Below are positions 5,736 to 55,758 of a stretch of 64,000 nucleotides of DNA, piece by piece. Location: the NCBI GenBank assembly GCA_905178155.1, contig CAJINV010000014.1, positions 1,815,984 to 1,879,983 of the forward strand, in the 5' to 3' direction. Position 1 is the first letter of the stretch. Every line of letters begins with the position of its first letter. Made by a program: the position numbers and the translations under genes. Under the pieces are notes generated by a model. The model searched no databases. It saw only the letters and a program-made list of their open reading frames with translations, and had not been told where the DNA came from. Origin of the DNA: Amoebophrya sp. A120. Lineage: Eukaryota > Protista > Dinoflagellata.

Positions 5736-8700
5736 TCATGTAAATCCCTGCTCATCAGTTTCTTCGAAACCAGTGTCCTCCTCCACGCCGAAGTATTCAT
5801 CGTAGAGTCTCTGCGCCACGTCGGAAAGCTTTTCGCACAACAGCCTCTCCCCCCACACCTCCAAAAACGCCTGCACAATCTGCAGAAACGGCTCCACGGT
5901 TACCACGGTACTAGAAGACGATTGTTTGTTGTTCACTGCGACAGCAGCTGTTGTGGTCATGGCAGAGAACAACGCGTCTGCGGTTGGTATGCATTGCAAA
6001 AGTATCGCACTCGTATATTATACGCATTACAAATTTCCCCAGCATGAGAAATGAAATTTGTAATGCGGATTTACCTTAACAAAAGGATTTGCAATGCATG
6101 ACTGCAATACGAGTGCGATACTTTTGCACAGGATAGTTGGGGGCGGTCTGCTATTTCGCATTGCAGAAACCAGTAAACTGTCAGCGAAGGAGGGAGATGA
6201 AGTAGCACCAGCTGCACCACTTCTAGAAGAAAAAGCATGAGATGAAACATCAGAGCTTCTAGTACCGAAAGAAGTGAAGCACGAAAAAGAGGCTTTGCTC
6301 ACTCGCTTTTCCCTTTCCTTCTTACTCTCCTTCCCGATCTGCAGGTCCGGAGTCCAGTCGTTGTCGAAATCCTTCCGGCTGTTTGACAAAAGTTCCGTCG
6401 AGATTTTTTTCCAGATCTTTTTCGAAACTTGAAACTGCTCGTCCAGAGGCTTTTGGTTTTCGTTTCGCTGGAGGAAATCCTGAATCGTCAACTTCAGCGG
6501 GTCGTGGAGACCCGTAGACTTGTAGTTTTGCAGAAAATTTTCCACCATGCTGGAGCTGCTCTTCGTAAAATTGATGGCTGATGTCGTTGCCCCGCTACCT
6601 CCCCCCGCGCCCGCAGCAGGACGGTCCCCTTGCTGCACTTTCCGAGAAGCCGCGCCGCGGTGCAAATCTCGCAAGATGCCGGAAGCGGAGGCACTGTTTC
6701 GGTTTGCATAATTTCCCCTCCGCGAAGATGAGGTGGAAGCCGAAGAGGTTCCAAAAATCGTGCTTTGAGAACGATTCCCACGCAACACTCCTGACGTACT
6801 CGCACTTCCACTGCGAAATTGTAATCTCGCTGTTGTTGAGCTTGTTGCCTTCGAAGAAAAAATCGCTGTTGCCGCGCCTGCGCCCGCACTTTCTCTTCGT
6901 CCCAGCAAAAACTGTCTCCTTTCCCTTTCCGCGGAAAATTCCTGCTCCGAGGCTGCTGCGGCAATGCGGAACAGGCTTAGCGCCTCGATCAACACGCGGC
7001 CTTTCAACCCCGAGGGCTCGTGGTAGGCGACGTCATCATTTTGATTGCCGCTTTTCGTTTCGTTCCTTCCATGTGGTATCCCGAAACCCGAGCGGCCCGT
7101 TGGACCGCACCGTTGGGGCTGGGTAAAGCGTACTGGGCCTATCTAACAAAACCGAGGCCCAGCACGCCTCACCACCACCTTGCCAAAAGGGCAAGACCCC
7201 TCAGAACCCCACCGCAGGTGGTTGAATGAGGGGAGACCCAGCCCCGCCCCCATTGCCCTCGGCAAGGCACAACGCGGACGCGAAGAGAGAATCCCCGCAA
7301 CGAGAGACGAGAAAGTACGGGACCGAACCAAAGAAAAAGTACCGGTGGGTAGTCGCGAACACGCCCCACTGAGTGGGATCCGAAAGCTGGCGTTGGCCAG
7401 AAAAGGAGCAAAGCAACCTTCCAAAGTTGGAGGAAATCCATGAAACAGAGTGGATATGCCATCGACAAGTACCTGCACACAAAATCCGCTCACATGTACA
7501 AAAACACTCCCAGGAAAGCCTGAAGTGCTCAAACTTGAGCAAGCAAATCCTCAGCCGGAATCGACTGGAGCAACTCGCAAGGGTCTTCCAGTGGTGTAGC
7601 CACTGTGGTCAGGAACCTCTGAATTTCGTCCGTCAAAGCTCCACAGGAGAGCAGCTGCACCCGGGCTACCCGACAAAACTGCGCCCACAAAGCGTCGCGG
7701 GTAGTTGCGTCCGCAACATTTTCCCCGGAGGGGAGCCACTCAAAGTACGGCACAATGGCAAAGCGGGCACACAAACTCCAAAATAACGCCGCGACCACCG
7801 ACAGGTGGGCGCGCTGCAAATGTGGAACGACTTCACCCCGTTGTAGTCCAAAACAGCCCGCGCAAGACTTTCCGCAGGCACATCTACCGAGGACAGAGAA
7901 TCAAGCGGGGAAGGCGCCCGCTGATGTGCTAATAATTCGGAGCGAGAGATCCCAAAGGCCTCGACGTCACTGTCACTGAAATCCTGCGCCACCTTTCTCT
8001 TCTTGACCGGCGGCGGACCCTTGCGGGCCGGGATCTCTTCTTCCCCTTCTTCCGCTAACAGGGCCGCACAAATTTCCTCTTCATCTACTTCCCGGGCCCC
8101 CAAGGCCGGAGCCTTCATCTTCGCGGCCGGTTTGGCTACGGCTTTCGCAGCTTTAGCCTTGTGGGGAGGCGCCTTCCCCTTAGGCTTGGCCGGGGCCTTA
8201 GCCTTAGCCGGGTGCTTCGCTTTCGCCTTCGCGGGCATGGTCTCTATCTCTAAGCAAGGTGCTAAGTGAGAAGCGTGTGAGTATACTGTGGAATTAGGCG
8301 GCAAGCTACACTTGCGCGCACCTAGAATGTCCCCTGTGAGAATGTCGAAGCAGATAAAAACAGGCAGCGTGTATGGTACCCGCGCCTAGTGGAAGGGGGG
8401 GAGGGGGATCTCATTTACCAGTAGCAAACTTTGCAGGGATTTCTAAACCGACCCCGATAGACCTAGAGCCCCAGCTCTCATCATGTCATCTCGTGCCAGC
8501 CCCTAGCTGGGGATCCTCTAGATTTCTGACCCAGTACCACGCATTTTCGTGGTAATAATTTGGATTTTTTCAGATGGTAGATTATTCCAACGCGAGTCTG
8601 AACATGATTTAGGTTGCAGTAGAATTGTCAAAGGTTCTGGCTGGGCCTCAACATATCGAGGAACTGAGGTAGGCGGGGGGCGGGGCCTTTCAACCCCGAG

Positions 8701-11700
8701 GGCTCGTGGTAGGCGACGTCATCATTTTGATTGCCGCTGTTAGAAGTCCGCTGGTCTTGCTGTTGACGGTCTCCAGTGCTGACGAACTGGTTCGGAAACG
8801 CGCCGCATTTATCGAGGGAAAAAAATTCGTGGTCGTGGGGGGACGCTGTGTAGAAAGACTGGCGAAACAGCAGTTGGGCGATGCTGTCGGGCTGTTTGTT
8901 GGCGACGAGATCCTCCATCGTGTGCTTTTCAACTTCCGGATACACCACAACGTGTTGCGTCGGCGACGTGTTGTGCAGAAAATGGTGGAGAAACGAATGT
9001 TCGGGCAAGTCCGGGCGGAAGGGGGAGCGCGAATCGGGTACAAGTCCTCGTCTCGTGGTCCGCTCGTGCTTGGCCTGATTGTTGCCCGGCGCAGCCGCGC
9101 GTTGTACCTCGGAAGAAGAAACTGTGCCGAAGTTGAAGGAATAGGCACCAGCTCCATGATCTGCGCTTTGCTGTGGGAAAGAGACCGGCTTCGCAAAGAG
9201 GTAACACCGCGTGTCGAACCGCTTGCGGCGATCCGTCAGGGTTTCCTCCGCGGCCGGCGCGGTGCTGGTCGTACTGTGGTCTCCGAACGTGCTACTAGCT
9301 CTGCTTTTCTCGTCGTCAACAGCTTTTTTCATTACAGGGGCTTTCGCCTTCTGCTCAACACCTACCTGCTCACCAGTTCCACCCACGACGACGTCAAAAT
9401 TCCCCGCTGATGTTATCTCTCTATCGTCTCCAGGAGATGACGTTGCTGCCCGAGCTTGCTCCTTCATCTTCTCCAAAAATTGTGGCAAATCTGCAGTGAA
9501 ATGCTCCATTTCCTCCGATCCAGGCACCGTGATCATGCTCAGAACCGGGTAGATGGCGTTGTAATTTTTCACTGGTTCATCTACTTTGGATGAAGTAAAC
9601 GCGGCGAACGCGGGAGCTACTTGTAGCTGATCCACCGACGACGACGTCGACGCAACTGCGTTACGACCTCCGAGTGCCGTGACAGTGTCGGGGTCAGCCT
9701 CAACATCTCCTGTTCCTCCAAATGAGCCTCCCACATCGGGGGCACTGAGATGAAACGTAGAAGTACCACGCGTCCTCCCGTCGACATCCTCGCTTTGGTG
9801 CTCGTCGTTCGTGAAAAAGATTACCGGTGCGTAGCTGTTGGCCAACCGCTTGTTTTTCCGCGCGATCAGCACGCTCACGTCAATGCCCTTCTTCACCTCT
9901 TCCCCCCGTTCGGCCAAAAACCTCTCAAAGTCCGCGCCCCGCCACACAAAATGCTTCCACGCTAACCGCCTCCGCGCGAACCACTTTAGCTTCTCAAACC
10001 GCGTCGCGACCGGGTCCTTGCTCCACTCCGGAATCCCCGTATCAAATGTAAAAATGTCTGGGTCTGGAAGAATTCATGTTTGTCATGCTTGTCTGGCGTG
10101 ACTCTTAAATCTGTCATGCACGTTACCTAAGAGCTCCGTTTTTTTGTGATGCAAAAGCGCAGTTTGTCATGCAGAATAGGCAACACCTAGGAGCTCAGAA
10201 ATTTGTCATGCTGCGCCAGCATTTGCAGCCTCATCATGAGACGCCACCCAGCATTACAAGTTTCCAGACCCAGACATTTTTACATTTGATACCCCGGCTG
10301 GGTCAGCAAATTTTGCCAGCACTTCCGCCAACAGGACCCGAGGTTGGATTTCGTATGGGAGTGTCAGCACTGAAATCGACAAAGTTGAAATAATTTGTAA
10401 TGCATAAAATCGATACCAGTTGGAAGCCCAATTTCCAAGCGGTGCATGACAAATTTCGGCACCGTCTAAATCCAGTCTGTCATGCTGTTTAGGGACAGAA
10501 GGCGTCTTTTGTCATGCTACTTTAGCAGCTCTACCGCAGACCCCAAGCATGCTCACGGTCGGCCTTGCTTGCCGCCCCTGCAAAAGAGGCACTTCATGCC
10601 TTGCAATTTGTGCATAAGAAATTCTTTCAACTTTGACGAGTTCAATCCTGACGCTTCCATATTTCGGGATGGGTCCGTAAAAGTTCTCTTCGTACTTCTG
10701 CCCAAAAGGCATTTTCGAGGTCGTGGCCCGGAAATACAGCTTGCATAACGTCTCGGAATGCAGGATTTCCTGCTGCTTGATGGGCTCAGGGTTGAAGATT
10801 TGCTGTGCTTTTTTTTCTTCTTCTTCCTCCTCTTCCTCCGCTGCTTGTAGTTGAGCTGCTCCTTCTTCGCGTCGCGCTGTGGACGAATCAGGTAACTGTT
10901 GCCCAACATCTTCTACATCCTCGCCGGTGGTGTTCGTGGACATGGTCTTCTCCTTTGCACCTGAGCCAGACGCGCTAGGGCTAGTACCGGGTTGACAATT
11001 AGTACGATAATTACCGGTGCCAGCAGTCGCACCAGTCTCACGTCTTTCCTTTTCCTCTTCCAGTGCGCGATTTTTTAAGAACAACACTTCTTCCGTTCTC
11101 CTATTCTCTTCCATTTCTTCGAACTTCTTCAAAATCTTCGGTTCCTCCGCCTTCAAATTGAAGGCCAGAATGTCCGCCGGGTTCGCCTTTTTCCCGCGCA
11201 TAAAGCTGTCCATGTCGGTATGGCGCTCTCAACTGTTACGCCCTCAACTGTTACATGATTTGCCATGCAAAATTGCCGTGACTAGCAACGCCGTCAAGCT
11301 GCTTCGCGTGACAAATGCTCAGACGGCCAAACAGGCTGAGAATCTGTGCTGCGAAATCTGTCACGCAAGACGCGCAAGGTCCTTCCTTTCACTTTTGCCA
11401 TTCTTGCGTTGCAAATTCATGCAACAGTTGAGAATGTAACATTTGAGAACGCCATAGTCGGAAAGGTGAGTGTGTTTGGAGAACGCGGACAGGCAAACCG
11501 TGATCGGCTTCAAATCCGATTTTCTCAACACTGGGAGCGATGGATAGGCTTTCGTGTTGTTGTTGGTTGGTGCTGCTGGGGGAATCGATGTAGTTCTTGC
11601 AATAGGTTGATCACCTCCACCTTGTTCAAACGAAACCACTTTGCTGGCCGTTTCTTGTGGTCCTGTGTTTGTCGTGCCGGCGGAGGTTGGTGGAGCGACG

Positions 11701-14700
11701 ACAACTAGACCGTCGTTGTTAACACCGTCACCCGCGGTCCTACTAGTTGCCCCTCCTTGTTCTGCCTCGGACGGGTTACTACTCTCGACGTCCCCCTCCG
11801 CAGCTGAAGAAGACGAGTCTTCTGTCGAGCTTCCATTTGCCGAGCTGCTACTTCCACCTGACGAGTCGCTGCTGCTCACATCAAACAAAACGTTCCGCAA
11901 ATTCTGGAAATCGTGCGGCATCTCCCGCAAATCTGTCTTTCCTAGCAAATATTCATGCCACTTTTCCTGGAAGAGCCGCGAGCTATGCAAGAAAAAAAGT
12001 GATGTAAGTGAAGTGTAACTTCTTTGTGTTGCATTCTTGCGCAGCGAAACACGAACTAACAGCTATCACCTGTCATGCTCGACAAGCATGCATCGTAGGC
12101 GAGTCTATCTGCGCATCACAAGTTTTTGCTGTCCACCCGGCAGATCGATATTTGTGTATGCTGTTTTCATCTTCACAAGAAAGTTCCACTAACACGACAG
12201 CCTTTTTCATCCTGGATACGAGTGTCGGTCTTCGTAGTCGGCATTCAAGTTCCTCACCCCATTCGGGTCAATGATCGCCAGGTATGAGAGTGCACAACTC
12301 CCCCTCGCCCTCATTTGTCACGCAAAACCCGAAATCTAAGTGCTTTCCTGTGGCACTGTTTGCATGACAGATTCCGGAAGCCCAAACAGTACTACACTAG
12401 GCGCGTGAATTTGTCATGCACAGGCTCCACGTGTGCTGGTGTTTGTATTTTTGCTGTTCATGCAATACAAATGAGGGGGGAGGGGGGGGCGGGAGTTGTG
12501 CACTCTCATACCAGGATCTGCAGCGCCTTTGGATCTTTCAGTTGGATCCACCACTTGCCTATCAAGTGCAAAAGCGTCTGGGTCTGGAAGAGTCATGCTG
12601 TTTTTGCATGACGCAGAAGGTCTGGCATGGAACCTATAGCATCACAGGTTTCGAGAGGCAGCTTCCGCAATGCCGAATCCGCATGACAAATGCCTCATTT
12701 TGGTGACAGAAAGTGGGTAGCTTTTGCTGCCTGTGCATGAGAGATTTTTATGTGTTGTGAAATGCGCCTAACAAGTTTGCATTCTTCCGGACCCAGACAT
12801 ATTTGCAATGCATATTGCCCTTGGTGCTGCTCTCCACGGACAGCAAGTTCGGAACGCCTTCGTTCGCCGCTTCGCGTTGGATGTCGCCCAGCGTCAACTT
12901 CTCGATTTGCTGCTTCAGCACATCCATATCCCACTTGTATTCCTTGCTGTACTATGAACTGCAAAAGTATCGCACTCGTATAAATGCATTTCTCAGCATA
13001 TGCGGATTTAGCTAAAACAAAAAGATTTGTAATGCATGACTGCAATACGAGTACGATACTTTTGCACAGGATATGTACCGCCGCTGCCACTGCATTCGCG
13101 TCCTCGCCTTGATCAGAAACTGAAAGTTCAACCGCAGCGAGGTGGAAGTGGTGAAAGTCAGTTTGTGGATTTTGTTCGGGTCCTCCGCGAGTTCTTCTGG
13201 GTCGATAGGGATCGGTGTCTTAATTGTCGTTTTCACAACTTGGATATGAGAGTACACAACTTGATGTTCACCCCGACAACTCAAACTCCGTCACTTGCAT
13301 GGTCTCTAGTAAAGTAATAGATGCAATAAAAGCGCCGTGGCGACGTAGCTTCAGCGGCACCACTGGTCCTAGAAATCGTAAATGCGAACAATTCCAGGTC
13401 CACATCCAGAAGAGAAAGATTGAGAATGATCAAGTCGGTATCTTGCATGACAAATCGCGGGAAAAAGTGAAAAGAAAGATTGTGCACTCTCGTATTGGAT
13501 CCGCACGTCGCCAAGAATTTCCATCACCCCGTCATTCCGGACGATTTTGTCGGGCTCCTGTGGCGGGTCTTCTTCGGTCTGGTTGTCGACGTTGTTGTAG
13601 GCAACTTCATCATGATTGACATCGTCTTCCCCCTCGCCAAAACCGACCGGCGCTTCGCTCACGCCGGGTTTGATCGTCACCGTTTCTGGCTCGATTGTGT
13701 AGTACGAGTTTTCATCCAGGAACCGGTGTCCGGGAAGCGGCACCTCCTGGATGTCCACGTCCGCCAGCATTTCCGCCTTTTTCGCCTCCAAAACGAACAA
13801 TTTCTCCCGCACCTTCTGAAGCCCGGCGCGGTAGGGTTTCAGCGGATTGGTTTTGTTTTTCATCACCCCCATATTGGCCATCACACCCAGCGCCTGCATC
13901 TTCTTCGCCATCCCGACAAAGTATGCGGAATACAAATCTAGCGCGCACGTAGACGGACGTTCTTGATGTACGAAATGCATACACAAATTTGCGCATATTA
14001 GTACCTGAAGAATCTTGAATTTCTTTCTTATGATGTGTTGTGCAATGAGAAGATCACAGGAGAAAGCGCTAGGGCAGAGCCCTGTTTATGCACGCGCGAC
14101 ATTTGCGAAACCCAAACCACCGACGCCGTGCCCAAGCGCAAGCCCATGCGCGCTAAATCATGATTTCTGTGCATAAAAACGTGACCTGCTTTTTCTCCTT
14201 TGGGTTTTCAACCTCAACGTCGTCAACATCCCCGACGTCCCCGAAGTAGCGCTTCCCGAACAATTTGCGCTCGAGCTTCTTCTCCTGGTCCCGCAACTTA
14301 CCCAGCGGCCCCTGCTCGAACTCGATCTCAATCTGGTACTTTTTCTGCTTCCGCTTGTGCGCAATGACCAGCGCGGCGAGGTCGGGTCCGCCGAGGAAGT
14401 AGTACTTCAAGTCCACCTTTGGTAACGCCGAGTAGGGATAGAGAAACTCGACAACCTCCTTCAATTCTTCTTCCGGATTATTTAGATGCGGGCTCGACGT
14501 TTTTTGCCCTTTTCGCTGCTCGGAAGTAGTACCAACAGTGATATTCCTTGCGGCCAGTGCTCGTCCACCCCGCTTCTGCTGTGCTTCCGCAGCTACAGGT
14601 TCGTTCACAGGTACCATTTTTTTCCGCAAGAGGGGTTGGATCCAGGAGAGCCGGGTGATTCTTCTTTCCGAGGTCAAGTAATCTTTGTCAAAGAGTCCGT

Positions 14701-17700
14701 ATTTCAAATCGAACAAATCCTCCTTCGCGCTCTCGAAGCGCTCCACGCTGCCAAATTCCGTCACAGTCTCCCGCTTTCGCGAGATCTCGCTCGAGAAAAG
14801 AAAGTAGTCGCTCTCCGACGCTTTCGGGAGCTTCGCCGTCTGCTTGTGTTTTTCGCGAAACCATTCCTGAAATCCCGTCCAGTCCGTGTGCAGCTTGGTC
14901 TCGTCTTTCTTGTGTTTGGAGGTCTTATTGTTTCCGCCGGCGGCGGTACTGGTTGCGGCAAGTTGATGGCCGCGGTCTTGAAGCTCAATGTGGTGCAAGT
15001 TGGACGGGGAGGAGATTTGGTCCGGACCTATAGCAAATTGCTGCTGCTGCACCACCGTACCGGTGGCAGCTGTCGAGAAAGAGACAACGGCGTCGGTACC
15101 AAATATAGCCGCCGGGGCGGAGGTAGTGAGGTCGTGGGCGTTTTCTTGCCGGCCGTCGCTTTGGCCGCGGCTGTGCTTTTCCTGGGTTCGCCATGCCGTC
15201 GCGAGTAACGTTAGGCCGCACGGTATGGTGGCCGCTTCATAAACGTCGCAAATTTTGGCAAATTCCCGATATTCCCTTCCGAAAGCCAGCCCCCATGCTA
15301 TGGGGCCGATCCGGGTGCCACGGGGGGCGCCCAAAAAGCGAAGGGAAATCGGGCCCGTAGCATGCGGGCTGGCTTTGCGCGTCTGGCGCGCTTTTGCTTT
15401 TTTGCGTTTTTATTTTTCGCGCCGGCGCTTTTTGCAAAGCTTCCCAGGCTCTGAAACAGGCGAAAACTCGGCCGCTTTCGCGGCCGCCCAAAATGCTCCG
15501 AAATCGCGGCCGTGCCGTGCTGTTTCGCTGTTCTGATTTTGGGCGCGTTTTTTTCGCGCCCCTTTTTGGGCGCCCCAAACCGCCAGAAACTAAGGCGGTG
15601 GGCGCCTCAGAAGGGCGCCCCTTTTGCCGGCTCCCCTGCGTCGTTTTACCCAGCGGCGATCGATAGAATCCGCTGGCGATTCGGTGCCGACACAGCCAAA
15701 GCCGCTTGATAATTGAAAATATTTTTTGTCAAAAAACGCTTCCGGCCGCTTGAAAACTGCCGGTCGTTTTTCAGGGTAGCTGTCAAAAAAACTCCCTGGT
15801 TAGAACCGTTCGGTGACCTCACTACATACTATGGGATCCCCCGGCGTCGCTCGCAGCTTTCCCGGTTGAACTCGCTGGTGCAATTTTGTTCGAAGGCGAG
15901 GAGGAAAGACTGGTGATTGGCATCGCCAACCCGGCCGAGTTGCCTCCAGATGTTGATGGACCGGCGCCAGAGGTCGTGCTATTTCCTCTCTTGTTGCCAC
16001 CTCCAGTGGGCGAAGTTTTGTTTTTTGCACTCGTCTGCCCTGAGGTGGACTTACCACTCGTCCCACGTCCTTGCTTGTTCTGCGCAGCAGAAGTCGGAGC
16101 CCGCCCACCTGCTGCGGAGCCTTGCACAGTCGCTCCGCCTCCCGTCACGTCTCCTTCGCCCGCCCCTGCTTGCTCCAGTGCGAGTTGCTTTTCCGCCTGT
16201 TTTCGCTTCCACACTTCCTCACACTGGTCGAAGTACCATTGGAAGCCCTTCTTGGCGTCGTCGTAAAAATCTTCGCGGAGCGTCCTCGGATCAAAGTACG
16301 TTTGCTCGTTCAGCTTGCCGCGGATCACCAGGTTTGTGTAAATCTCTCCGGTGTTCACTACTCGGACCAGGTCGGTGTCCCGTTTCGGCTCTTCTATCGG
16401 GAAGGGGGGGAGGAAAGCCGAACTCGAGGAAAACATCTTCTGCTGCTCTCCGCCTGGATGACGTTGACCTCCTGCTGTGTTTCTACTTGTGTTCGACGTC
16501 CCACCGCCCAGCGAAAGTTGCAGCTGTCTATTCGAGTTATTTGGAGAAGCACCCCCTGTCCCTGAGATATTTGCAGCTTTATTTGTTGCGCCACCACCCG
16601 CCTTCTTGCCGCCTTGTTTAACATTCGAGCTGTTCTTGTTGCCTCCCCCTGCACTACTACCACTCTTCCCTCCACCACTAGAAGTCGCGCTGGTATTCGT
16701 TAAGGCTGAGAACACCATCGTTGCAGCGGCTTTGAGTTTCGCCTTTGCGCCTTTAGCGTTCGCAAGTGTAGTGCCCGTTGTTCCATCTTTGTCACCCGTG
16801 CTGGTCTGTTTGCTTTTCATCCCTTCCGCCTCGATCTCCAGATTGCGGTCGATCCGGACCTCCATCAGGATGCCTTTGTAGTCGGTGTGGGAGGGGATGA
16901 TGTTGCGGGTGGAAAGGGGGTCGTCGAGACACTCGCAGCACTGCACCTGAAATTTTTTGTCGGACAATTCCTCGTCGTTCATGATCTCCACCGCCTCCTC
17001 GCTGTACCAGCCCGAGAACACCCTCCGCGGAAAGACGCGCAGATTAGGGTCCAGCACCCGCTTCACCTTGCGGATTATGCAATGCAAATTCCCGCTTATG
17101 GAGGACACACAAAGACATCAACTTGTCATGCAGAATTGGCTTGGAAGGTAAGTTAAAGTTCCGTCATGCAGACGCCGTGTTTGTATTTGTACTTGTAGTT
17201 GTTCTTGTAAGGGAATATCACTACATTTCCTGTGGATACGGATCCGCAACAGTACATCGGCCGCGCTCTTCACTTTGCGAGAAAAGTTCATGAGCTTGCC
17301 CATGGTGCCAATCGTGCTGCTGGTCGTACTTGAGGGGCGCGACCCCGCGCCGCGCGTGCTGGGCCGAGACTTCGCGGCATTCTCGTAGTCGAAGAACGCC
17401 CCTTTGGTGTGGATGTCGGTGAAGACTGCTTGCGTGTTGTCCGGCGTCTTTCGCAGCTGCTTCAAGCAGGCGCGGACGTGCTTCAGCTGGCTCACCGTCT
17501 GGTCGGCGTAGGGGACCCGCATCCGGCTGCCGGTTCCATACCGCAGGATTTTCTCGTACAAATCTATAGCTTGCTCAGATGCTACAATCTCAAACACAAA
17601 CGTTATAATAGAATCTGGAATTTGTGATGCAAAACGTGCAACCCCTGGCCTACTCCCACAGCAGTGCGCATGACGAGTTCGGCAGCCCCAAACGGCACTG

Positions 17701-18007
17701 AAATCCAGCGAAATTTGTATTGCGAAAAGGGCAGGTCTCTCTCTGGTACTCATGCTGCTCATGCAAGACAAATCCCACATTCTATTCTAACGTTTGAGAT
17801 TGTAACAGTAACACCTGAGCGGGTTATAAAATCGTCCTCGAGCTTCTGCTCGAACTTCTCGTAGAATCGCAGGGTCCCGAACTCGTACAGTGGGGGTTTC
17901 CGCGGGAGTTTGCGCTGGGGCGGTGGCAGTTGTTGCGGTGGCTGCGGGCTGGGGGAAGCCGAAGCGTCATTTTCGAAGGAAACCGGCAGCGGCACCTCCT
18001 CCGACAT
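5736..18007 (-). CDS. large unknown protein (~2,425 aa after removing 14 interruptions)
   Basis: Removing 12 TAT...ATA inserts (each plus 5 bp), one GT-AG intron (14005-14185) and the 7053-8683 insert (plus 55 bp) leaves 7,278 nt = 2,426 codons. Junctions read through, e.g. PPPT|ADAL, PIPK|SNLG, HLSD|MDSF, QRRY|SKEY, VRIQ|VVKT. No family recognised. Confidence 0.7.
5988..6135. mobile_element. introner family A (~150 bp)
   Basis: TSD GTTGG on both sides; TIR TATGCATTGCAAAAGTATCGCACTCGTAT / ATACGAGTGCGATACTTTTGCACAGGATA; excision restores frame. Confidence 0.92.
7053..8683 (-). mobile_element. internally deleted DIRS/VIPER-like (tyrosine-recombinase group) retroelement remnant in a 55-bp direct duplication
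   Basis: Identical 55-bp repeats at 6998-7052 and 8684-8738. A K/A/P-rich ORF (MPAKAKAK...) is joined out of frame to FWSLCARFAIVPYFEWLPSGENVADATTR (7529-7819), which matches the C-terminal retroelement RNase H motif W-x-P-S-x-x-N-x-A-D-x-x-[ST]-R. No RT or YR is visible. Confidence 0.65.
10040..10291. mobile_element. introner family B (~250 bp)
   Basis: TSD CCCCG; perfect 30-bp TIR TATCAAATGTAAAAATGTCTGGGTCTGGAA. Confidence 0.93.
10354..10661. mobile_element. introner family E (~310 bp)
   Basis: TSD TTTCG; ends TATGGGAGTGTCAG / CTGACGCTTCCATA; homologous to 38150-38460. Confidence 0.92.
11219..11456. mobile_element. introner family G/H
   Basis: TSD GTCGG; TIR TATGGCG(C/T)TCTCAA(C/A)TGTTAC, 19/21 match. 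Confidence 0.9.
11984..12218. mobile_element. introner, D-like ends, diverged
   Basis: TSD CGAGC/CGAGT; ends TATGCAAGAAAAAAAG / CTTTTTCATCCTGGATA; joins DRHS|RLFQEKW. Confidence 0.8.
12283..12510. mobile_element. introner family C
   Basis: TSD CCAGG; TIR TATGAGAGTGCACAACTCCC. Confidence 0.92.
12560..12814. mobile_element. introner family B
   Basis: TSD TTGCC; GTCTGGGTC(T/C)GGAAG TIR core. Confidence 0.9.
12953..13073. mobile_element. introner family A, internally shortened (121 bp)
   Basis: TSD TGTAC; family-A TIRs. Confidence 0.92.
13245..13494. mobile_element. introner family C, diverged
   Basis: TSD TTGGA; ends TATGAGAGTACACAA / TTGTGCACTCTCGTA. Confidence 0.85.
14005..14185 (-). other. 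canonical GT-AG intron
   Basis: CAG|GTCACG...TTCTTCAG|GTA; removing 181 nt joins KKQ|VLICANLCMHF in frame. Confidence 0.7.
15224..15828. mobile_element. 605-bp GC-rich TAT...ATA insert with weak TIR/TSD
   Basis: Starts TATGGTGG, ends CACTACATA; flanks CACGG/CTATG match poorly; removing 610 nt joins AGGSHS|GLTLLAT in frame. Confidence 0.6.
17076..17238. mobile_element. introner shared with the paralog (538-702)
   Basis: TSD CGGAT; sequence near-identical to 538-702. Confidence 0.85.
17565..17828. mobile_element. introner family G/H, absent from the paralog
   Basis: TSD AAATC at 17560-17564 and 17829-17833; the paralog has a single uninterrupted AAGTC at 1024-1028. Confidence 0.93.
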
Positions 18008-18597
18008 GATTACTTTCCTTTCCGCCCGAACAAGTAATCAAGGTTCTGGCTCTTCCCCTACGCTAGGAGGTGGTGACTGACGCTCCCGTGGCCGACACGA
18101 GGCCCCAACTCAACCTCAAAACAATAAAGCACGGCATCTGAGGACGATCATCAAAGAGCGCTAGCAGCAGACATTTTTCGTCCCATATCATCTTCACCAG
18201 ACAGCAAACATAATTGACAAGATTCTCGTTTTTTGTAAAATTATAACAGGACGACTAAGACAACACAAGCTTGAGATGAAGGACAGGATATTAAGCACAA
18301 AAATTTTATTGGGCAAAAATGTAACAAACATGGAGTAAAACTTGCGACGACGATGTACTTCTACGCGAAGCGAATGGATAGGAGCCACATGATTCCCCGA
18401 CCTTCATATTCTCAACATCACGACCGTTGTAGACGACCTGGATAAGATGAGCCACAATATGACAGACTATTGGCAGGATGCTCGCATCGATAGAAACTGT
18501 TGCTTTTTTACAGTTTTTCTGTTGCTTTTTTACAGTTTTTACTAGCTGAAGAACAACGACTACAACGATGATCACGATAGACACGATAATGGCAACG

Positions 18598-38900: not shown

Positions 38901-41900
38901 CCTGTCAAGCCAAAAAGTGCTAACGCTAGCGCTTTTGGTTTTGTTTTGAGGCATTGCAGTCATGCATGACAAATTTTCTCTATCATGCATCATGCTACGC
39001 AATACAAATTTGGGCACGATTTCTCTCAACATGTGTCACTGCATGCCACATTCCGGAGGTAACGTTATAGAACTTTTTGGTGTAATACGACCAGATCGGC
39101 AAACAGAATTCTGCTGACCCCCTGCTCAAAGGACTCGCAGGAATCCAAGATTTTCGGAGAGTCCGGAACTTTATCAACTGCAAAATTGTCTGGGTCTGGA
39201 AGGATGCGAACTTGTGATGCTGGATTTGGATGCTATAAAAATCTGTATTGCATGAACAGCAACAGCGGTCCAGTTTTTGCCCCGGCGACGAGAGGGCATT
39301 TCTCATGCGGCATAGGCATCAGAAAGCCCTCACAAAATCTGTGATGCTAGGGCATCCATCACAGACGTCAGGAGTCATGCAAAATATGCATGACAAACCT
39401 GGCAACATTTTTCCAGACCGAGACATTTTTGCATTTGATACACTTTGCGCAGAAACAAGAACGAAGACTTCCGTAGCTCCTTCAAGGCGCCTGTGGTAAA
39501 ATGGGTCAGCGTTCCCGGTCGCGTCACGCTGTCATACCGGATTAGGGGATGCAGTGCAAAAGTTTTCTTTTTCTCTCGAGGAACAACTGGGTGGAAAGGG
39601 AAGGTTGCGTAGACGTCGAATAAACAACTGCTACTGCATAGCTATGCAAACCTCTCGTCGCCCAATTTGATGATGCGTACATAAAATTTATTCTCATGCG
39701 GAAATTGCTCTGGAGAAGGGATCTCTCATGCGCTCTTGCAGGTTGTATCAAATTTGCCGTAGTGCGAAGATGCAACAACTTTTGCACCACAGGATACAAT
39801 CCGCGATTTTGTAACTGTTGTTGCACGTAGGGTATGACCGGGTTGCTCGGCACGTTCCAGCAGGCGAGTGTGTAGCAGCGATCTGATGTAGTCGTTTTGC
39901 ATGGTTGTAGTGCGAGAATCCTATCATAAATCACGACCATGAAGAGACTTCCGCGGACTTCGTGAAAGCAACTTCTATCTTAAAAGCGAATTCCGCAGCA
40001 CAAATTTTATTAATTTAGTGTATGAAGTCAATATCCTCGAATGGTGCAGATGAATACAAATTACCGACGTATTTGCTCAAGTCAAAGGCCTTGTCGAATG
40101 CTAAGAGTTGAAAGTCGGTCACCCCCTATGAAAGTGCACAACTCCCCCTCCCCCTCATTTGTCATGCAAAAAACCCAATCCACCCTTTGCCTCTTGCTAC
40201 TGTGTGCATGACAGGTTCTGGTAGCCCAAACAGAACTATATTCCAGTGCACGGCACCCTTGCTGATGCTTGTATCGCCGTTCGTGCTACACAAATGAGGG
40301 GGAGGGGGAGTTGTGCACTGTCATACCCCCCGGACAACACCCACGACGGACTGGAAGACGTAATATTCGTCGAGGCAACCGGTGTTGGATGGGAAGGCCC
40401 AATGGTTCATGTGGAACGCATACATCATGTCTTGCAGACCCTGTGAATATCAAGAAGGGAGGCACATCTACTTGTTAAGGGCCCTGAATCAAGAATCAAC
40501 ACTGCAGCTCGGTGACCTCCTATGCTCAATCTTGCCGAAGATGCAGATGATACGAACAAGATGCAGCCCCCAATAGAATATCCAGAGATGAGAGGAAGGC
40601 TATCACGTCGAAAAAGTCGCAGTCCACCTTCTATTCTCCGTGTAATGCTTGGATTTAGATGAAGTAGAGACGACCTCCAAGTCGCACAGTTCACATCGAA
40701 GATCATCCATTGATATAGACTTGCTTAGTGGAGTGGGTGGGGGCTTGCTACGGCAACTTTTGCTGCAACACAAAAGGAACAAAGCGTCCTCCGGGCAAGC
40801 TAAGACCGGCGGCGCTAGCTCATCGTGGTGGAAAAGTCGGGCAGTCGCTGATGTGGACGACGCTTTCTTCTCTTAGCATTCAGGGCGGCTTTGAGTGGAG
40901 CAGTCGGTTGGCACATAATTCGGGCGAACAGGCGACCTGAACGGCATGAACAAATACCAACAAGACGCTCGGCGCCGGTACTGGTCGTCTGTTCTCGAGT
41001 AGTAGTTTCTTCTACTTCTAGCAACCCATTGCCGGCACCGCTCGGCTATCCTGTGCAAAAGTATCGCACTCGTAGCAATTGCTATCGTGCATGACAAATA
41101 TCCCTTTTATAGGTAAATCAGCATTACAAATTCCATTTTTTTTCTTGAAAAAATTTGTGATGCAATTTATACTAGTACGATACTTTTGCAATGCATATCG
41201 GCGCCACCGTAGACGCCGGTAGCAGGTTTTCGCGCACCGCTTTCTCGTTGATATCCTGTGCAAAAGTATCGTACTCGTATTGCAATCATGCATTGCAAAT
41301 CTTGTTCTTAAGGCAGATCAGCATTACAAATCTTATTTCTCATGCTGAGGAAATTTGTAATGCATTTATACGAGTACGATACTTTTGCAATCCATAGTTG
41401 AATTTGTCGAGCAATGTGCGCTGCTGGAAGGCCGCCGCGGGAATGTTTTGCAGCGTGTTGGGAAATGGAAGGAAAATAAATGTTGAGCACAGAGGAGGCT
41501 GCCATGTGTCATTGATGTCAACATTCCGAGCGTGGTGCCACATCCTCCAAGACCAAGTCGTATCTTTTCGGCTGATAACTGCATGCATGCAAGTAGAGAA
41601 GCGAGCTCTTATGCTTGACAAATTGCAACCTTTCATCTGATGTCTCCACCAAAACTATCGCACTCGATAGCACCAGGGCGCTCCACATGTAATATTCGTC
41701 GAGGCAAATGCGTATGGAAGCGAAAATTGAAGATTTAGCTACGCGCTTACGAGTTGTTTGTGTACTTCCGAATGAAATGATGTTGAAGGAGGCACAGCTA
41801 CTAGCGTCAGACGCGAAAGCTGTATGTAGTACAAGACTCGTTCGTATTAAGGAGCTAAAGAGAAAGAACTCGTAAAGCACGCGGCTGAAAATATATAACT

Positions 41901-44900
41901 AAAAAGCAGCTCACTTTGCGTAGCCCAGCCCACTAAGCCAAAGGACGAAAGCAGACTTTGATACGTGATAGCCTTTTATTTAAGGTTTCGCGAAATTATT
42001 TCTCATACTTACAGCAGCAGTGCCGTAATCTGTCCTAAATGAAAATAATCTGTAACTTCCTCGAGCTCGGGGGGTTCGTTTTCAACATCAAAAAACAACA
42101 CAAAGATCATCGCTATGATCCCTATCTTTATCGCGAGGATGCAGTACTGCTATAGTAGAAAACAGCTTCTGTACGTTGATGTTATAGTTCGCCACGAGTT
42201 TGGTCGCGGCGGCGTGCGACAGAGTGACCCACTGGTGATGCTTCGCAGCCACTTCGTACCCCGCACTGCATATGCAAAGACAGCTTTGACAAAATAATCA
42301 CGACTTTTTGATGCCCCCTCGCAAACAAAGCAAGACAATTTATGCATAAGAAAGTATAAGTAAAATAAAAATGATGAGAAAATAACTCTGATTGATTCGT
42401 CTGGTGTTAATTGCTTCTATTTGGCATTTGCAGTTCATTTTTCTTCCGGCTCGGTGCCGCCTCTGCTAGAAGTGTGCGCTGCACTACAACAAGCAAACCT
42501 AGGAGATTCAGGATTCATCTCGTCAAATCAGTACACTATCTCCCCGCGCATACTGGGATCCGGCATCGGTCTTCTGGCCCAAGCGGAGACGGGAAACATG
42601 CAGAACGCAGACAACTGTGGGTCCAGAAACAAAGTCTCGTGCACGAATTTCTTCGGTTTGACCGGCAGCGTGCTGTCGGACTGGAAGACAAACTGGTCCT
42701 CGGTTGAGTGGCTGTTTTCCAGCGCTTTTCGCAAAAGCGTATGCAGTACAACATTTTTTCCCGTATCACACGTACAAAATGTATCACAGAGTTCGGCAAC
42801 TACGTGCACGCCACTTGTCATGCTGAGCACAGGATTGCAGAAAGTTCTGTCATGTAGAAACCGCATCTGCACGTGTACGGGAAAACATTAACATGTATCA
42901 ATATCTCCTGTGGATACAGCGCGATCATGGGCGAAACGAGGTCGGTATCACAAGAAAAAGTGTACACGTACACGGTTTTCCCGTTTTTCGAAGAAAAATT
43001 TTTGTGGGCTCCCTCGAGGCGTTCACTTGTGTCAGTGAAAGCACTCGCTACGAAGTTCGCTAGATTGGGAGTGTGGCAAGGCTGGCGAACCTAGAGCACA
43101 CGGCCCGAAGGTCATAGTCAAGACCCAGCAGAGAGGGGAAAGAAGCAGCCGAGTCATCTGCCCAATGCTCCTGGCCTCGTCTCAGGGCCGCGCAAAGAAG
43201 GCCGAAAAGGCCGGGAGTTGTCACTCTAGCGCCTGGAGGTGGGCCGCCGGCGGCTCCTGCAGCCTGTGGCCCAGGTTCTCCTTGCGCCGAGGGTCAAAAC
43301 CACCCAACAAACCGTCGCCACCATCAAAACAGGCGAAGGGCCTCCTTTTGAAGAGGTAAACGGACCATGCCATGCAGTCTGGAGAGGATGTACACGGTTT
43401 TTCTTGGGGTCAAGAAAATCCGCAGAAAAAGAGGCAAATTTATCTGAATTTTGCCTGCGAAATCGCGCACCACCAAAAAACCGTGTACATCGCATCTAGA
43501 CTGCATGGTATGATGGATGTACACGGTCTGCGAAGTGGTCGGGGCCGGAGACAGACACTCTGAACCGTGTACATCGGCCATACCATGCAGTCTAGATGCG
43601 ATGTACACGGTTTTTATGGGCCCTTTTTAAAAATTGTTGCGTATTTCCTACTTTTGAAACCGTGTACATGGGCCATAGCGTGGTGGCTAGGTTCCATGTA
43701 CACGGTTTTTGGCCAATCTGAAAAATTTGGCCTTGGAGGTATGCAAAAATTTGCGTTTTTCCGGACATCCGAAATTTGGAAACTTTCCCAGATCTCGGGA
43801 CACAACACAGCCAGACGAACCCGCCGAGAAATCTGAAGCAGTTCGGCTCCCGCCCAAACAATAATCCGCAGCCCCCATCAATGTTTCCGACCCCAAACAC
43901 AGCCTGGCGGGTGGGGATGGAGTGTTCATGGCGGTGGGCCACTGTCGGGCATTGGAGGGGGAGCTGCTTTGCGCTGATGCAAGGGGCCCCATCTGGTGCC
44001 AGGATTGCAGGTCTGCCTCGTGGATATCATCCACCAAAATGCATCGGGCTTGGGCGGCGACCCTGAAAGCTTGCGCCCATAGTAAATTCAGACCATTGTA
44101 GAGCGACAGTCTCTCCAACGCCGGGGCGAAGGCTTCAAGTGGTGCCACTACGTCGCGCTAGGGGGGCGCCAAAAAATTTTTTTTGGGAAAAAATGCAAAC
44201 CGTGTACGTGTACACTTTTTCTTGTGATAGTCGGTGCAGTAGCTGGAGGGCACAGGCTCGATCAAAGTTGCGGGAAAAGGGGGCATCTGGCACGTGTAGC
44301 CGTCTTTGCAGTGTACATAGGCCGCCCAGTCAGATGATGATGCGTCGGAGGTGGCGGCGCTTTGATCCTGCTGTAACATCGTCGCTGTAGTCGCACCTGC
44401 AGTTGCGGTATCCTGCGCACCGTACGAGGGAGGCTGAAAATACCGTCGCCAGCTCTCGGCATTGTTGATGTGATTGTACACGAGAAAAAGGTAGTGCACT
44501 TTGCGGTCCGTTTTCTTGGTAGTTGTCCCGTCGGTTATTGTTTTTTGAACGCTGTCTGATGTTCCACTGTTACCTCGCTTGAGTAGACGTCTTAGGCCGC
44601 TTCTTTTCGACGCGTTATTTCTTCCAGTTTTCCTGATGCTACGTGCTGTGCTCTGCAGCAGCTGGCTACTTTTGCTGGTGTTGCCGCTCTCAACATTCCT
44701 GTTCCGTGAGACGATGCGCAGTGCGTTTGTGGCGCAGAAAATGTTGCTGCTTTGGTCTGGTCCGGAAAACAGGGAAACTGCAGCGAACAAAAGCTGCGCT
44801 CGCATGAGGAAACGCGGCACCAAAATTGTGCTTGCGGTGAACGAGCCGCGAGTTCCTATGCCCGAGCAACGCTGCGCGGCAGCGGCGGGAAAATAAGCTG

Positions 44901-45637: not shown

Positions 45638-48600
45638 TCACCCTCGCTTTTGCTTCTTGCTGAAGAGTTGAAACTTGTTCTTTTTTTCACCTCCCTTCTC
45701 ACCAACAGCTTCCTCGCCGCGCTGCCGCTTTTTGCTGGCTGTAGTTATGGCACCAGATGACGACGGAGTTGATTCCTGAGTTGCAGCAGCTGCATTCGGG
45801 TTGTTTGCAGATTGTGGCTTGCTGGAAGTAGTAGAGACTGAAGCTCCGCTTGCCGCGTTCTTTTTCCCACGGTTACCGCTCTTTGCCGCAACTTTCCGTT
45901 TCTCCACTAGCACCGCGCGCATGGTCTTCGTGTCATTGAATTCCGGTCTAGTGGGGTCGATGCCGAATTCCGGGTCGTTGAACAATTTTGCAAACCGGTC
46001 GTCCGAAGCGAGCTCTTTGGTCGCTGTGCTGCTTTTGGTAGTTGAGTGCGCTTCTTGTGTAGCATCAACATCGGAAATAAAATCCTCTTCGGACGAATCG
46101 TCGTCATTTTTTCTCTTCTTTCCCTTCTTTTTTGTCTTGCCCTTCATAGCCGTAATACTCTGTTGCTCCAGCTCCTCCTGCATGGCTTTTTTGATCTCCT
46201 CCCGCTTGTCTTTGATCTCCAGCTTCTTTTCCCGCCGTTTTTCCTTCTTTTTCTCCTGGAACTTCTGCCACGGGGTCAGCTTGGAGGCCTGTTCAAGCTT
46301 CAGACTTTGCATATTCTGCAGATTTTTCTTCCCGCCCGCGTTTTTCTTCAGTTGCTCGTCGACCTTCTCCTGGACTTTCTTCGCAACCGCCTCGGTTTCG
46401 GTGTTGAACGTCATCTCCATTGCGCCCATAGTTTCATTATGGATTGCAAAAATGTCTGGGTCTGGAAAGTTGGAACTTGTGATGCTGCATTTGGATTCTA
46501 AAAAAATCTGTATTGCATGAGCAGCAAAGAGAGTCCAAGACCAAGTCTTGCTACAGAGAAAGAGCATTTTTCATGCGGTATAGGCATCAGGAAGCCCTCG
46601 CAAAATCTGTGATGCTAGGGCATGCAGCATCACAGACATCAGGAGTCATGTTGGAAGGCTAAGGGCAGGGCGTCCCATTCGTTTATAAACTTAAAACGGT
46701 AGCCACCTACCCAGCAAACTCTGAGTGGAATAAGCATGACTCTGAGTGGACATCAGGAGTCATGCAAAATGTGCATGACAAACCTTGGATCCTTCCAGAC
46801 CCAGACATTTTTGCAGTTGATATTCATTCTCTGCGTCGCTGGCCGCGACCGAGAAATCGGATGGGATGTCGTCATCTTCTTCTTCCTCCTCTTCCTCCTC
46901 CAGCACTGGAAGATCTTCCTCTTCAGCACTTATCATTTTGTCAGCAGCTGCTGTGTCGGGAAGATCTATTTCGGAGGAACCCTCCTCTTCCTCCAGTTCT
47001 GAGCCGTTGTTTTCAGAAGAGTCATTTTCTGGGCTACTGTCAGCAGCATCCTCCTCCTCCGCGTTCTTCAACAAACCTCCCAGCAACAGCTTCCGCTTCT
47101 CTTCGACCTCCTTACTGAGCTTCTTCTTCTTCTGAGCACCGGCGTTTCCGTTTTTCTCGCCGCGAGAAGAAGTAGAGATCCCGACCGCACTATCGTGCTC
47201 GTTCTGTTCATCTTCATCAAGATGACCACCTTCGTAGTTTTCATCCTCCTCCGAATCGCTGTCCGCGAGATAGGTTTGCAAGTCGTTCAGCGCCATCTCC
47301 TTTTTCGAAAATTTCTTCATCAGGTCTTTTTTCCGCCGCGCGGGCTGCTCGTCCCAGTTGCACTGCGCCTTCGTGTGCGCCAAGCCCGCGCGGAGCGACT
47401 GGTTTTCGGTCAGGTGGGCGGTGTTGTGGGAGCTTTTGTGCAGCGTTTCCTCAAACGCCTTGCTGGTGCACTCGTCCACAACGGGCCGGTCGATTTCCCC
47501 CATCTCGTCCGGGACTTGCCGCACGTCCAACGGCCGCCCGTTGCACAAAGAGTCGATTTGGTGCCCGTCCAGCTCCTCGTACAGTTTCCCGCAGGTTTCC
47601 TTGCTGTCCAGCTGGATCACGGCGAAGAAGTACTGCAGTTTGCGCAGGTTGTATATGACAGCGCACAACTACAACTTCCCCGCCCCCTCATTTGTTTAAT
47701 AGCATGAACGGCAATACAAGTGTCAGCAAGAGTGCAGGTTTTGCACGACAAATTTGCACGACAGGAGTGTAGTGCTATTTGGGCTCCTGCCAGAAGGTGT
47801 CATGCGAAAAGTGCCGAGAGGCAAAGGGTGGATTTGGTATCTTGCATTAGAAATGAGGGGGACAGGGAATAGTTGTGCACTCTCATATTGTACTTCCGGA
47901 TTTCCTCCTGTTGCTCTTCGTTCTCGGAGGATGAAGAGTCGTTGTCGTCGTTTGTAGCATTAATATCGGGATTTATTTCTTTATCATCTTCGTTCTCCAT
48001 TTCTTCGTCGTCGGAATCTTCAACAGGAGCTCCTGCTCCTTCTTTGGCCTGTTTATTTTTCCCTGTCGTGGCACTACTAGAACTAGTGTTTCTTTTTTTC
48101 TTCATTTCCTGAATCGCGGGCCCGTGCTGCGCCTCGTATTCCAACGCTTTCTCCCCCGTTTCGGACCGGTAGATGCGACAGTAAAGGATTTTGTCATTGT
48201 TTGTCAAGTTACTATTTTCGCCGTCGGCATGATCTGTCTCGCCCTTACTACTCTTTCCTGCATTCAGCAGCTTCTTTCCCACGCGCGTGTTCGCACCGCT
48301 CTGTCCAGTACTAGCATTTCTACTTCCACTGTTGGCGATGAAGGATTTTGCCACCCGAAAAATGTCCTCGGCGGTCACCGTGTCCCAATCCAGGGTCTGG
48401 AAGGCCAGCCGGCTCCCAGTGTCGTGCTCCGTGCGCTCGATTTGCTTGCCGTCGTAGTAGCCGGTGGTTTCCCAAATGGTGTCGTCCGGGTCGTAGCTGT
48501 CTTCTGACTCGTATCCAGGAAAAAACACCCATTCACATCCAATTTGTCATGCAAAACATACGTAAAATTCTGTGTTTGTCATGCAAAAAATGGATGTGGA

Positions 48601-53683: not shown

Positions 53684-55758
53684 TCATTCCCTCGCAGCAT
53701 CGGCGTGGAGGAGCAGCTATCAAATGTAAAAATGTCTGGGTCTGGAATGTTGCCGGGTTTGTCATGCATATTTTGCATGACCCAGGATGTCTGTAATGCA
53801 CGACCTAGCATCACAGATTTTTCGAGGGCTTCCTGATGCCTACTCCGCATGACAAATGCCCTCCCCGCGTCGCATAAGCTAGACTTATCTTGCTTGTCAT
53901 GCAATACAGATTTTTTTAGAGTCTAAACTTAGCATCACAAGTTCCAATTTTCCAGACCCAGACATATTTGCATTTCATAGCAGCAGGCACTTCGCAATTT
54001 TCTCCACTGCGTCGTCCAAAGACTCAAACTATCCTGTGCAAAAGTATCGCACTCGTACTAATCGCATTCATGCATTACAAATTATTTTCCCAAGTCAAAT
54101 CCGCATGACAAATTTTATTTCTCATACTGAGCTAATTTGTAATGCAATTAGTACTAATACGATCCTTTTCCACTGCATACAAACTCCGCCAAGTGTTTCC
54201 CAGCCACGTCTTTCAAAGGCTGTGCGGTATGGGCCACGTACTCGTTATCTGGCTGCAGGAAAATCTGCTCGCAGGCACAGGTGAGTGACAACAGCGTCCG
54301 ACCGACGGCCACGGCGTACACGTATTGCAGACACTCCTTGGGAAACTGCGTCGTTCCCTGGTGGAAGTACCCGTAGCAAATGTTGGCGATGATTTCCGCA
54401 ATGGATAGGGTTTCTTGGTACATGCAGGCATAGGCCGCAGTGATCCCGATGTCGTAGAGACAGTAGTCGAAGCAGCTGTCGCCGAAATCTAGCACCGCGC
54501 CGTACTCAAAGCACTTCGTGTGCAAATCGATGGCGCGGAACAAAATGTTCGTGTCGTTCAAGTCTGTGTGGACCCACTGCTTGCGAAAAAAGCGGCTGAG
54601 GAACTGTACTTCTTTCGTTCTCCCGTGCGTGTTGTCCTGCTCGCAGTCGGGGTCTACAACTCCATTATGCTGCTTGTCATAAAGCGAAGAACTCGCTCTT
54701 CCCAATTCCTTTTCCACTTTCTCCGGCGTTAAGGGCAAAACGTTCGCAACTCGCTCGGCCAAGAGTTTTTGCAGTTTCTTCCTCTCAGGCTCATCATTTC
54801 CCAGAAATTTCTCGATTTTGTCCGCCACAACCTCGGGAATTGTGCTCGTCGACCACTTATGAAATGCAAAAGCATCGCACTCGTAAAAATCGCATTACAA
54901 ATTTCCTCAGCAGTTAGAAATAGAACTTGCAATGCGGATTTATCTTAATGAAAAGCTTTGTAGTGCATGACTGCAATCGCTACGAATGCGATACTTTTGC
55001 AATGCATACCACTCCCAGGTGAAAGTTGCGGTTTTCAAACGCCACGGGTGTCGTTCATCTGCACCCCCGCAAAAATCCTCCATGGCGTCGTGGACTTCGG
55101 CGGTTATTTCGCCCAAATGCTGGAAAAATTCTCGCGGCTTCTGCACGTACTCGGCAGTAGCGTCATCCCTCTCCGGAAAGAGCTTAGAATCGTCGATGAA
55201 AGTGATCACGTGCACCAAACAGTTGTCCTCCTCAATGTGGTGAAGATAGGAGGGTATTGCAGTTATTTCTCTCGTAGTACAATCCGGATTTGTTGCTGTG
55301 CTAGTACCTCCATCCTCAGGCGCGGTATGAGCTTCTACCTGAACAGGGATCGGAACCGGACAGGGCACACCTTTTGCTTTCAGATGCAGCATTGCCTCCA
55401 CCTGCAGTTGCACGTGGTCGGCGCTCACATATTTGCTGTTTTGCGCTTTCACAACGTACGACTTGTCCTCGTGGAGACTACTTTTCTTCAAAAACACTCG
55501 GTAGTTGTGGTCGTCGTAGCTCGGAAGCTCGGTAGTTTTGGTCAAGTCCAGCTCCCCCTCGAAGCTGAAAACTTCTGCGACCTTCTCCAAATTCAGCCGG
55601 AAATTCCGCCTCGGGTTGCCGGATATTGCTGGCTCCTGCGGCGCTTGTTGCGTACTATCAGCATGGTCGGTGGGCAGATTATGTGCAGAAGCAGCTCCCG
55701 ACCCGCCTTGCTGCGGCTGCTCGGGCGGAGAGGTGCTAGCTGTGCTTGTTGCAACCAT
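53684..55758 (-). CDS. HYKK: hydroxylysine kinase (HYKK/AGPHD1)-like aminoglycoside-phosphotransferase-family kinase (~498 aa, 3 introner introns)
   Basis: ELPSYDDHNY, YVVK, Brenner-like WVHTDLNDTNILF, VLDFGD, PDNEY; spliced length 1,497 nt = 499 codons. Confidence 0.82.
53718..53979. mobile_element. introner family B
   Basis: TSD GCAGC. Confidence 0.92.
54030..54179. mobile_element. introner family A
   Basis: TSD CAAAC; joins LAEF|ESLDD. Confidence 0.9.
54858..55008. mobile_element. introner family A
   Basis: TSD CCACT; joins FTWEW|STSTIPE. Confidence 0.92.

Follow-up and report, generated by a model that had tools for sequence, protein, structure and literature searches.

Paired-end introns of Amoebophrya sp. 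A120 are skipped in RNA-type contigs in either orientation and fit one polar cut register

Introduction

How can members of a single intron family be removed from transcripts regardless of the direction in which they are inserted? The question is raised by a 64,000-nt stretch of the dinoflagellate Amoebophrya sp. A120 (contig CAJINV010000014.1, positions 1,815,984 to 1,879,983; hereafter the window), which contains ~30 short elements that start with TAT and end with ATA, whose two ends are for the most part complementary and which lie between copies of a 5-nt direct repeat. An earlier note, made from the sequence alone, proposed that such elements work as introns in both orientations and that the signal is a symmetric hairpin of terminal inverted repeats and not a linear polar motif. 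Members of one family (A) are indeed skipped in both orientations in RNA-type contigs. The evidence favors the linear reading over the hairpin: the cut is polar, and some introns hold its register without a stem. This is a known system, real and supported by RNA-type contigs, with a new and testable splice code.

Elements in both orientations within minus-strand genes

All 11 coordinates at which the earlier note placed elements are starts of TAT…ATA elements. In these 11, 16–20 of the 20 terminal bases are complementary and the 5-nt flanking repeat is perfect or has one mismatch. As a control for chance, the element finder returns 114 elements in real loci and five in 40 shuffled loci. Orientation classes are based on comparisons of interiors after 30 nt were trimmed off both ends, supplemented by alignments. 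Family A divides evenly, with 5988, 12953, 38717 and 54858 in class I and 36875, 41047, 41252 and 54030 in class II; thus the proposal that this family occupies minus-strand genes in two orientations holds. Family B had also been described as flipped, and this is borne out by 53718 and 12560 (class I, the latter overlooked at first reading) versus 39172 and 46438 (class II). Element 10040 is a weak case, grouped with 53718 by its first ~90 nt only, and its trimmed interior is undeciding (48/69 versus 53718, 59/59 versus 39172). A third family flips as well (12283 and 40127 versus 47654).

The removed unit is the element plus one copy of the duplication. Taking out each element with 5 nt restores long minus-strand reading frames: a 1176-codon frame across eight elements (10040–13245), a 975-codon frame with Pfam ESF1 domains across 46438, 47654 and 48512, and a 571-codon frame across 53718, 54030 and 54858, in which a Pfam APH domain is split by 54858. 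The APH gene hosts family A in both orientations (54030 in class II, 54858 in class I). At 25744–25852, element removal gives no clear frame outcome, and a protein search with an exon of the APH gene identifies 0/406 candidates at E ≤ 0.001. The claim that all host genes lie on the minus strand applies to 21 of the 27 candidates in the whole window, with none on the plus strand and six undecided; these verdicts concern element-bearing genes and come from a codon model trained on the same window, which makes them partly circular.

The same balance is seen in related metagenome loci. A metagenome scan with the family A end word yields at least 149 loci (the 80 among them that are listed all carry one assembly prefix), with elements up to 94% identical to the window copies; the word has 0 matches in viral contigs. 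Host strand, assigned from flanking codons, is called for 179 elements and undecided for 95. Tabulated per family, as the earlier note had suggested, orientation is 47 class I versus 49 class II for family A (48/144 undecided) and 9 versus 9 for family B (18/36 undecided), and there is no orientation bias in these loci.

Skipping in RNA-type contigs

Four RNA-type contig sets (X3–X6) were compared with window positions 35650–41750. They derive from one sample in one study, possibly tied to the source of the window; their RNA status is a guess, and the comparison detects skipping, not efficiency. These contigs place minus-strand GT-AG introns in the 35.7–42 kb gene. A single contig, found in X5 and X6, skips the elements at 36706, 36875, 37780, 38150, 38717, 39172, 41047 and 41252, and also lacks a minus-strand GT-AG intron. 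Because this contig skips 38717 (class I) together with 36875, 41047 and 41252 (class II), a single transcript has lost family A elements of both orientations, as anticipated from the sequence. Direct joints are available for three of four class II and one of four class I copies (38717) of family A, and for one of two class II and none of three class I copies of family B. The full set comprises 18 junctions, 15 element-type and three canonical, with at least 15 joints in the contig listing.

Elements 54030 and 54858 have indirect support from a 1486-nt contig piece that stops at both borders and continues beyond. DNA-type contigs keep the elements: a piece covering 54054–55090 spans 54858 entirely, and others run into element ends. 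The raw RNA runs X9 and X10 have only three and one reads on the region and are silent on efficiency.

The principal elements and introns, all on the minus strand, are listed below with the support for their removal.

5988–6135, minus: family A introner, class I (TATCCTG end at the transcript 5' side), duplication GTTGG; 334+83 codon frame restored
10040–10291, minus: family B-related introner, class I from the first ~90 nt alone; frame restoration only
12560–12814, minus: family B introner, class I; frame restoration only
12953–13073, minus: family A introner, class I, shortened internally; frame restoration only
24180–24365, minus: family A-like element, class I, without remaining target duplication; removal of length plus 5 gives a 406+213 codon frame
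36706–36825, minus: introner of another family, GT-AG reading also possible; skipped in RNA-type contigs
36875–37022, minus: family A introner, class II, common-register intron 36871–37023; skipped in RNA-type contigs
37361–37634, minus: non-canonical intron A/TATG…CATA TTGC, end pairing borderline; RNA-type contigs, two placements possible
37780–38091, minus: introner of another family; skipped in RNA-type contigs
38150–38460, minus: introner grouped in one family with 10354 and 25902; skipped in RNA-type contigs
38494–38696, minus: introner whose 3' ATA has become ATG; skipped in RNA-type contigs
38717–38862, minus: family A introner, class I; one contig skips it together with class II copies
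38899–39088, minus: partly decayed introner (TATT…GACA), GT-AG reading also possible; skipped in RNA-type contigs
39172–39440, minus: family B introner, class II, imperfect duplication, so that the cut falls inside the duplication; skipped in RNA-type contigs
39544–39797, minus: introner with shifted stem, duplication gone, cut according to TAT/ATC; RNA-type contigs, two placements possible
40127–40325, minus: introner in an alternative exon, from the flipping family that includes 12283 and 47654; skipped in contig sets X3 and X4
41047–41197, minus: family A introner, class II; skipped in RNA-type contigs
41252–41396, minus: family A introner, class II; skipped in RNA-type contigs
41460–41670, minus: non-canonical CT…CC intron, C/TATCG…CATT TCCC, no end pairing; RNA-type contigs, single placement
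41709–41923, minus: non-canonical CT…CA intron, no end pairing; loose end in all four runs, single placement
46438–46822, minus: family B introner, class II, carrying an internal insert, in the ESF1-like gene; frame restoration only
53718–53979, minus: family B introner, class I, close to the end of the APH-domain gene; frame restoration, no direct joint
54030–54179, minus: family A introner, class II, shares its gene with 54858; contig piece stops at 54180 and resumes beyond
54858–55008, minus: family A introner, class I, inside the APH domain; DNA-type contig retains the whole element

A polar cut register

The cut lies 1 nt upstream of TAT and 4 nt downstream of ATA and is therefore polar. 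All 15 element-type junctions are compatible with this register; perfect duplications are compatible with any register, and five junctions are informative. Introns 41460 and 41709 have a single placement, 37361 is cut after position 4 or 5, 39544 after position 3 or 4, and 39172 at position 4 or less. Position 4 is the only cut that fits all five.

G+1 and terminal AG are not enriched. At this register, 54/203 elements have GT, 15/203 have AG and 3/203 have both; GT plus AG occur jointly at any register in 10/203, and no selection for GT or AG within the duplication is seen in the 203 elements. The element-type introns thus lack the GT/GC…AG ends of U2-type introns. Other positions are nearly invariant. 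Among the 179 strand-called metagenome elements, T+2 never deviates and A-7 deviates once (kept in 178/179), whereas the mirror positions T+4 and A-5 deviate four and five times; this 1:9 contrast (p = 0.02) was fixed after viewing the same loci and is not an independent test. Two of the three canonical junctions here, which have one acceptor in common, also show T+2, A+3 and A-7. The register agrees with Table S4 of PMC7789003, in which the nine predominant A120 non-canonical sites are all NT-NN.

End pairing and the hairpin

The symmetric ends explain why flipping is tolerated, and to this extent the hairpin proposal stands; its exclusion of a linear polar motif does not. An inverted repeat presents TAT at its 5' side and ATA at its 3' side either way, and flipping therefore cannot separate a hairpin from a linear motif. 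Introns without a stem are more informative. When end pairing is scored against 200 shuffles per intron, 41460 and 41709 pair no better than shuffles (68/200 and 107/200 as strong) or canonical introns, and they hold the same register despite the absent stem; 41460 retains only two of its first four pairs. In 39544 the predicted stem is shifted and leaves six bases free per side, and the cut still follows TAT/ATC. The end pairing of 37361 is borderline (10/200 shuffles as strong); the 12 other element-type introns pair strongly. Across elements, repeat positions 4–7 are Watson-Crick paired in 324/716 cases (45%), and wobble-keeping and pair-breaking changes at terminal positions 1–3 number 5:5.

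A general RNA-stem signal was suggested by an excess of elements in which the sense-strand end duplex is stronger than the antisense one (103:72, p = 3e-4), but this candidate reduces to a single site. The excess goes back to family A position 21 and is gone over positions 1–20 alone (87:84); it is likewise absent from rare substitutions in paired family A columns (44:42), and the non-A families have 47 G·U versus 56 A·C, i.e., no G·U excess. At position 21 (e.g., window positions 12973 and 13053), the metagenome copies of both classes have U·G in 36 cases versus C·A in 4 (haplotype by class, p = 4e-7), and the window copies, at 4:0, bring the combined count to 40 versus 4. The two ends are statistically independent at this position (p = 0.34); a one-ended bias toward T on the 5' side, or mutation skewed by strand, would therefore explain the site no less well than pairing. 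RNA pairing could be one reading of this site, and under any of the three the family A repeat is treated asymmetrically at position 21. A tree of 103 family A copies is poorly resolved (21/100 branches starred); on it, TC labels at position 21 are clustered (0/500 shuffles as low) and CT labels are not (246/500).

The strongest alternative takes end pairing itself as the signal, with a nuclease or modified spliceosome cutting at fixed spacers from either a long stem or a short TAT/ATA pair stabilized by protein. It would account for end pairing that reaches or exceeds the 5% shuffle level in 13 of the 15 element-type introns and for the avoidance of C·A at position 21 on the transcript strand, and it has a precedent in Euglena, where the code N3-CAG…CTG-N5-6 requires fixed spacers, sequence and complementarity (PMC12501133). 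However, 41460 and 41709 are cut without a stem, 41460 has only two of its first four pairs left, the cut in 39544 ignores the shifted stem, positions 4–7 are paired in fewer than half of the cases, and a G·U excess is found nowhere but at one site. We regard this alternative as unlikely; on the favored reading, the hairpin is a helper at most.

Interpretation

We lean, with slightly better than even confidence, towards removal in both orientations by means of a short polar code within the repeat, read by a divergent U2-type spliceosome for which the long hairpin is unneeded. The elements would be inserted by a DNA transposase that leaves 5-nt duplications. Their inverted ends would carry the code n/TAT(G or C)…(C or G)AT-n-nnnn/ and so make it readable in both orientations. 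The n-T-A-T-G/C segment would act as a relaxed GTATG-type 5' site, A-7 would be the branch point, and the 3' site would be set by its distance from A-7. GTATG is the yeast 5' splice-site consensus. The stem would then be largely a side effect of the transposon ends and may hasten the splicing of young copies. In its most specific form this reading is more tentative: a spliceosome that takes no account of G+1 or the terminal AG, and reads only T-A at +2/+3 plus a branch A 7 nt from the 3' end, would make a scar-free intron out of every TAT…ATA transposon that has a 5-nt duplication, whichever way it faces and with or without a hairpin. Nearly all spliceosomal proteins are reported present in Amoebophrya, where a U1 snRNA was not found (PMC7789003), and snRNP27 is listed as not detected (PMC7789003 Table S4); in yeasts, loss of SNRNP27K accompanies 5' sites with U at +4 (PMC10581693).

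Several points weigh against the spliceosomal reading. A spliceosome that ignores +1, -2 and -1 is a large departure, the A-7 branch point is a candidate from conservation, and the third canonical acceptor does not have A-7. The stem-less introns are presumed to be old elements, and a TAT/ATA pairing of 2–4 bp may be involved. Further weaknesses are the sense-strand asymmetry at position 21 and the post hoc choice of the 1:9 contrast. Finally, the junctions represent a single gene region, a single strand and a single sample of guessed RNA status.

The same linear code could instead be read by a dedicated protein cut-and-join system, perhaps derived from a transposase, that operates beside the GT-AG spliceosome. 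Such a system would be in keeping with the unconstrained G+1 and AG and with the U1 snRNA not found in Amoebophrya (PMC7789003), and an internal 10-mer common to 173/179 elements suggests one binding protein. However, the code resembles GTATG moved into register, T+2, A+3 and in part A-7 recur at the canonical junctions here, the 10-mer is missing from the spliced intron 41709, and a near-complete set of spliceosomal proteins is reported (PMC7789003). This makes a dedicated system distinctly improbable. Elimination from DNA, as for ciliate internal eliminated sequences, would render orientation irrelevant and suits the TA-bounded ends and the exact loss of one duplication copy, and a rare joined DNA form could exist since joints in X1 were judged among the matches listed, but it is highly improbable given that DNA-type contigs keep the elements (54054–55090 spans 54858), that contigs skipping elements also lack GT-AG introns, and that end conservation tracks transcript direction on both DNA strands.

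Relation to known introners

Families A and B are very probably the published introner elements of Amoebophrya A120, whose inverted repeats read TAT, seven variable bases and AAA and for which a hairpin was proposed (Farhat et al. 2021, PMC7789003). TAT is present in 198–203 of 203 elements per position, and A at positions 11–13 in 178–192 of 203. The 5-nt repeats fall within the 3–5 nt border repeats of A120 introners, and both families are repeated and removed with non GT-AG ends. Short direct repeats, many families, non GT-AG ends that are mostly NT-NN, and co-oriented genes are also shared with the A120 description (PMC7789003). Thus the elements, the hairpin idea and introners in either orientation are already published. 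In the accessible parts of PMC7789003, splice positions are given as variable or unknown (Fig. 3 legend) and repeats as lying 1–5 nt from splice sites (S23 legend); the balanced orientations, the single polar register and its persistence in introns without a stem go beyond this description. Outside subscription papers, the accessible text of PMC7789003, PMC12130899, PMC9860276, PMC12787238 and PMC11282704 contains no orientation count, fixed register or stem-less cases for Amoebophrya that we could find, and Figs 3 and S19–S25 of PMC7789003 may show part of them.

Introners of Aureococcus and Polarella are non-autonomous, generate target duplications and form introns in either orientation (bioRxiv 10.1101/2020.10.14.339549; Huff 2016 as cited in PMC10228655). 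There, GT/GC/GA donors and AG acceptors are reported to be supplied by the element or by the duplication, and orientation is biased in several classes. Here neither dinucleotide is needed, as the low counts of AG and GT (15/203 and 54/203) and the CT…CC junction indicate, and the split is even. Non-conventional introns of Euglena, for which an origin from miniature inverted-repeat transposable elements is proposed, likewise have complementary terminal triplets, fixed unequal spacers and free terminal bases (PMC12501133). Their triplets are CAG/CTG with spacers of 3 and 5–6 nt, as against TAT/ATA with 1 and 4 nt here, and the likeness is one of form only; they are also reported to leave as circles, with pairing as part of the code. 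Diplonemid introns have paired ends as well. The model for the spliceosomal reading is Fritillaria borealis, in which transposon ends serve as splice sites for an adapted U2-type spliceosome (PMC11282704; bioRxiv 10.1101/2025.08.15.670264). That lineage is a different one and prefers AG-AC and AG-AT ends, and the role of the spliceosome, reported there, is proposed here.

How tens of thousands of non-canonical introns are removed in Amoebophrya is stated as open in PMC7789003. The fixed polar register and the stem-less cases make this question sharply testable. The register would also settle where annotated introns begin and end, and would account for the predominant NT-NN sites. If removal is spliceosomal, the known limits of splice-site chemistry are stretched, and the flooding of genes by transposons at little cost would be explained.

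Other features of the window

A 10-mer, TTTGTCATGC/GCATGACAAA, recurs across families and on both strands (235:218), at a density of 9.05 per kb inside window elements versus 0.5 outside, and is likely the binding site of a mobilizing protein. As a required splice signal it is rejected, being strand-neutral and absent from the spliced intron 41709. Family A copies (e.g., 6003–6120) also contain an inner pair, TATCG…CGATA, set 15 nt in from the ends; it resembles either a nested element or a second, cryptic set of splice signals.

Within the 35.7–42 kb gene, a micro-exon of ~16 nt (38697–38712) lies between two introners and is kept in all four RNA-type sets; the joint at 38717 has 12 letters in between, corresponding to 38700–38711. 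Alternative splicing occurs at 39883–42174, where acceptor 39883 is joined to 40065 or 40958 and 40440 to 42175. The alternative exon sets have a ~20-nt stretch in common (40360, 41689), which suggests duplicated, mutually exclusive exons.

Elsewhere, the element at 30286–30628 has intact ends and, like 24180–24365, no longer has its target duplication; removal of its length plus 5 gives an 86+90 codon minus-strand frame. A gene segment is duplicated at 59–1219 and 16594–18036 (87–97% identical). The two copies have an introner in common (538 and ~17075), and its insertion is therefore older than the duplication. A 55-nt direct repeat (6998–7052 and 8684–8738) flanks ~1.6 kb between two long minus-strand frames; this interval includes a 239-codon frame (7666–8385), and 6998–8738 is possibly another mobile insertion. 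Larger inverted-repeat structures of other types, apparently intergenic, are located at 21824–22502, 42946–44229 and 59188–59450, the second of which contains four internal 53-nt repeats.

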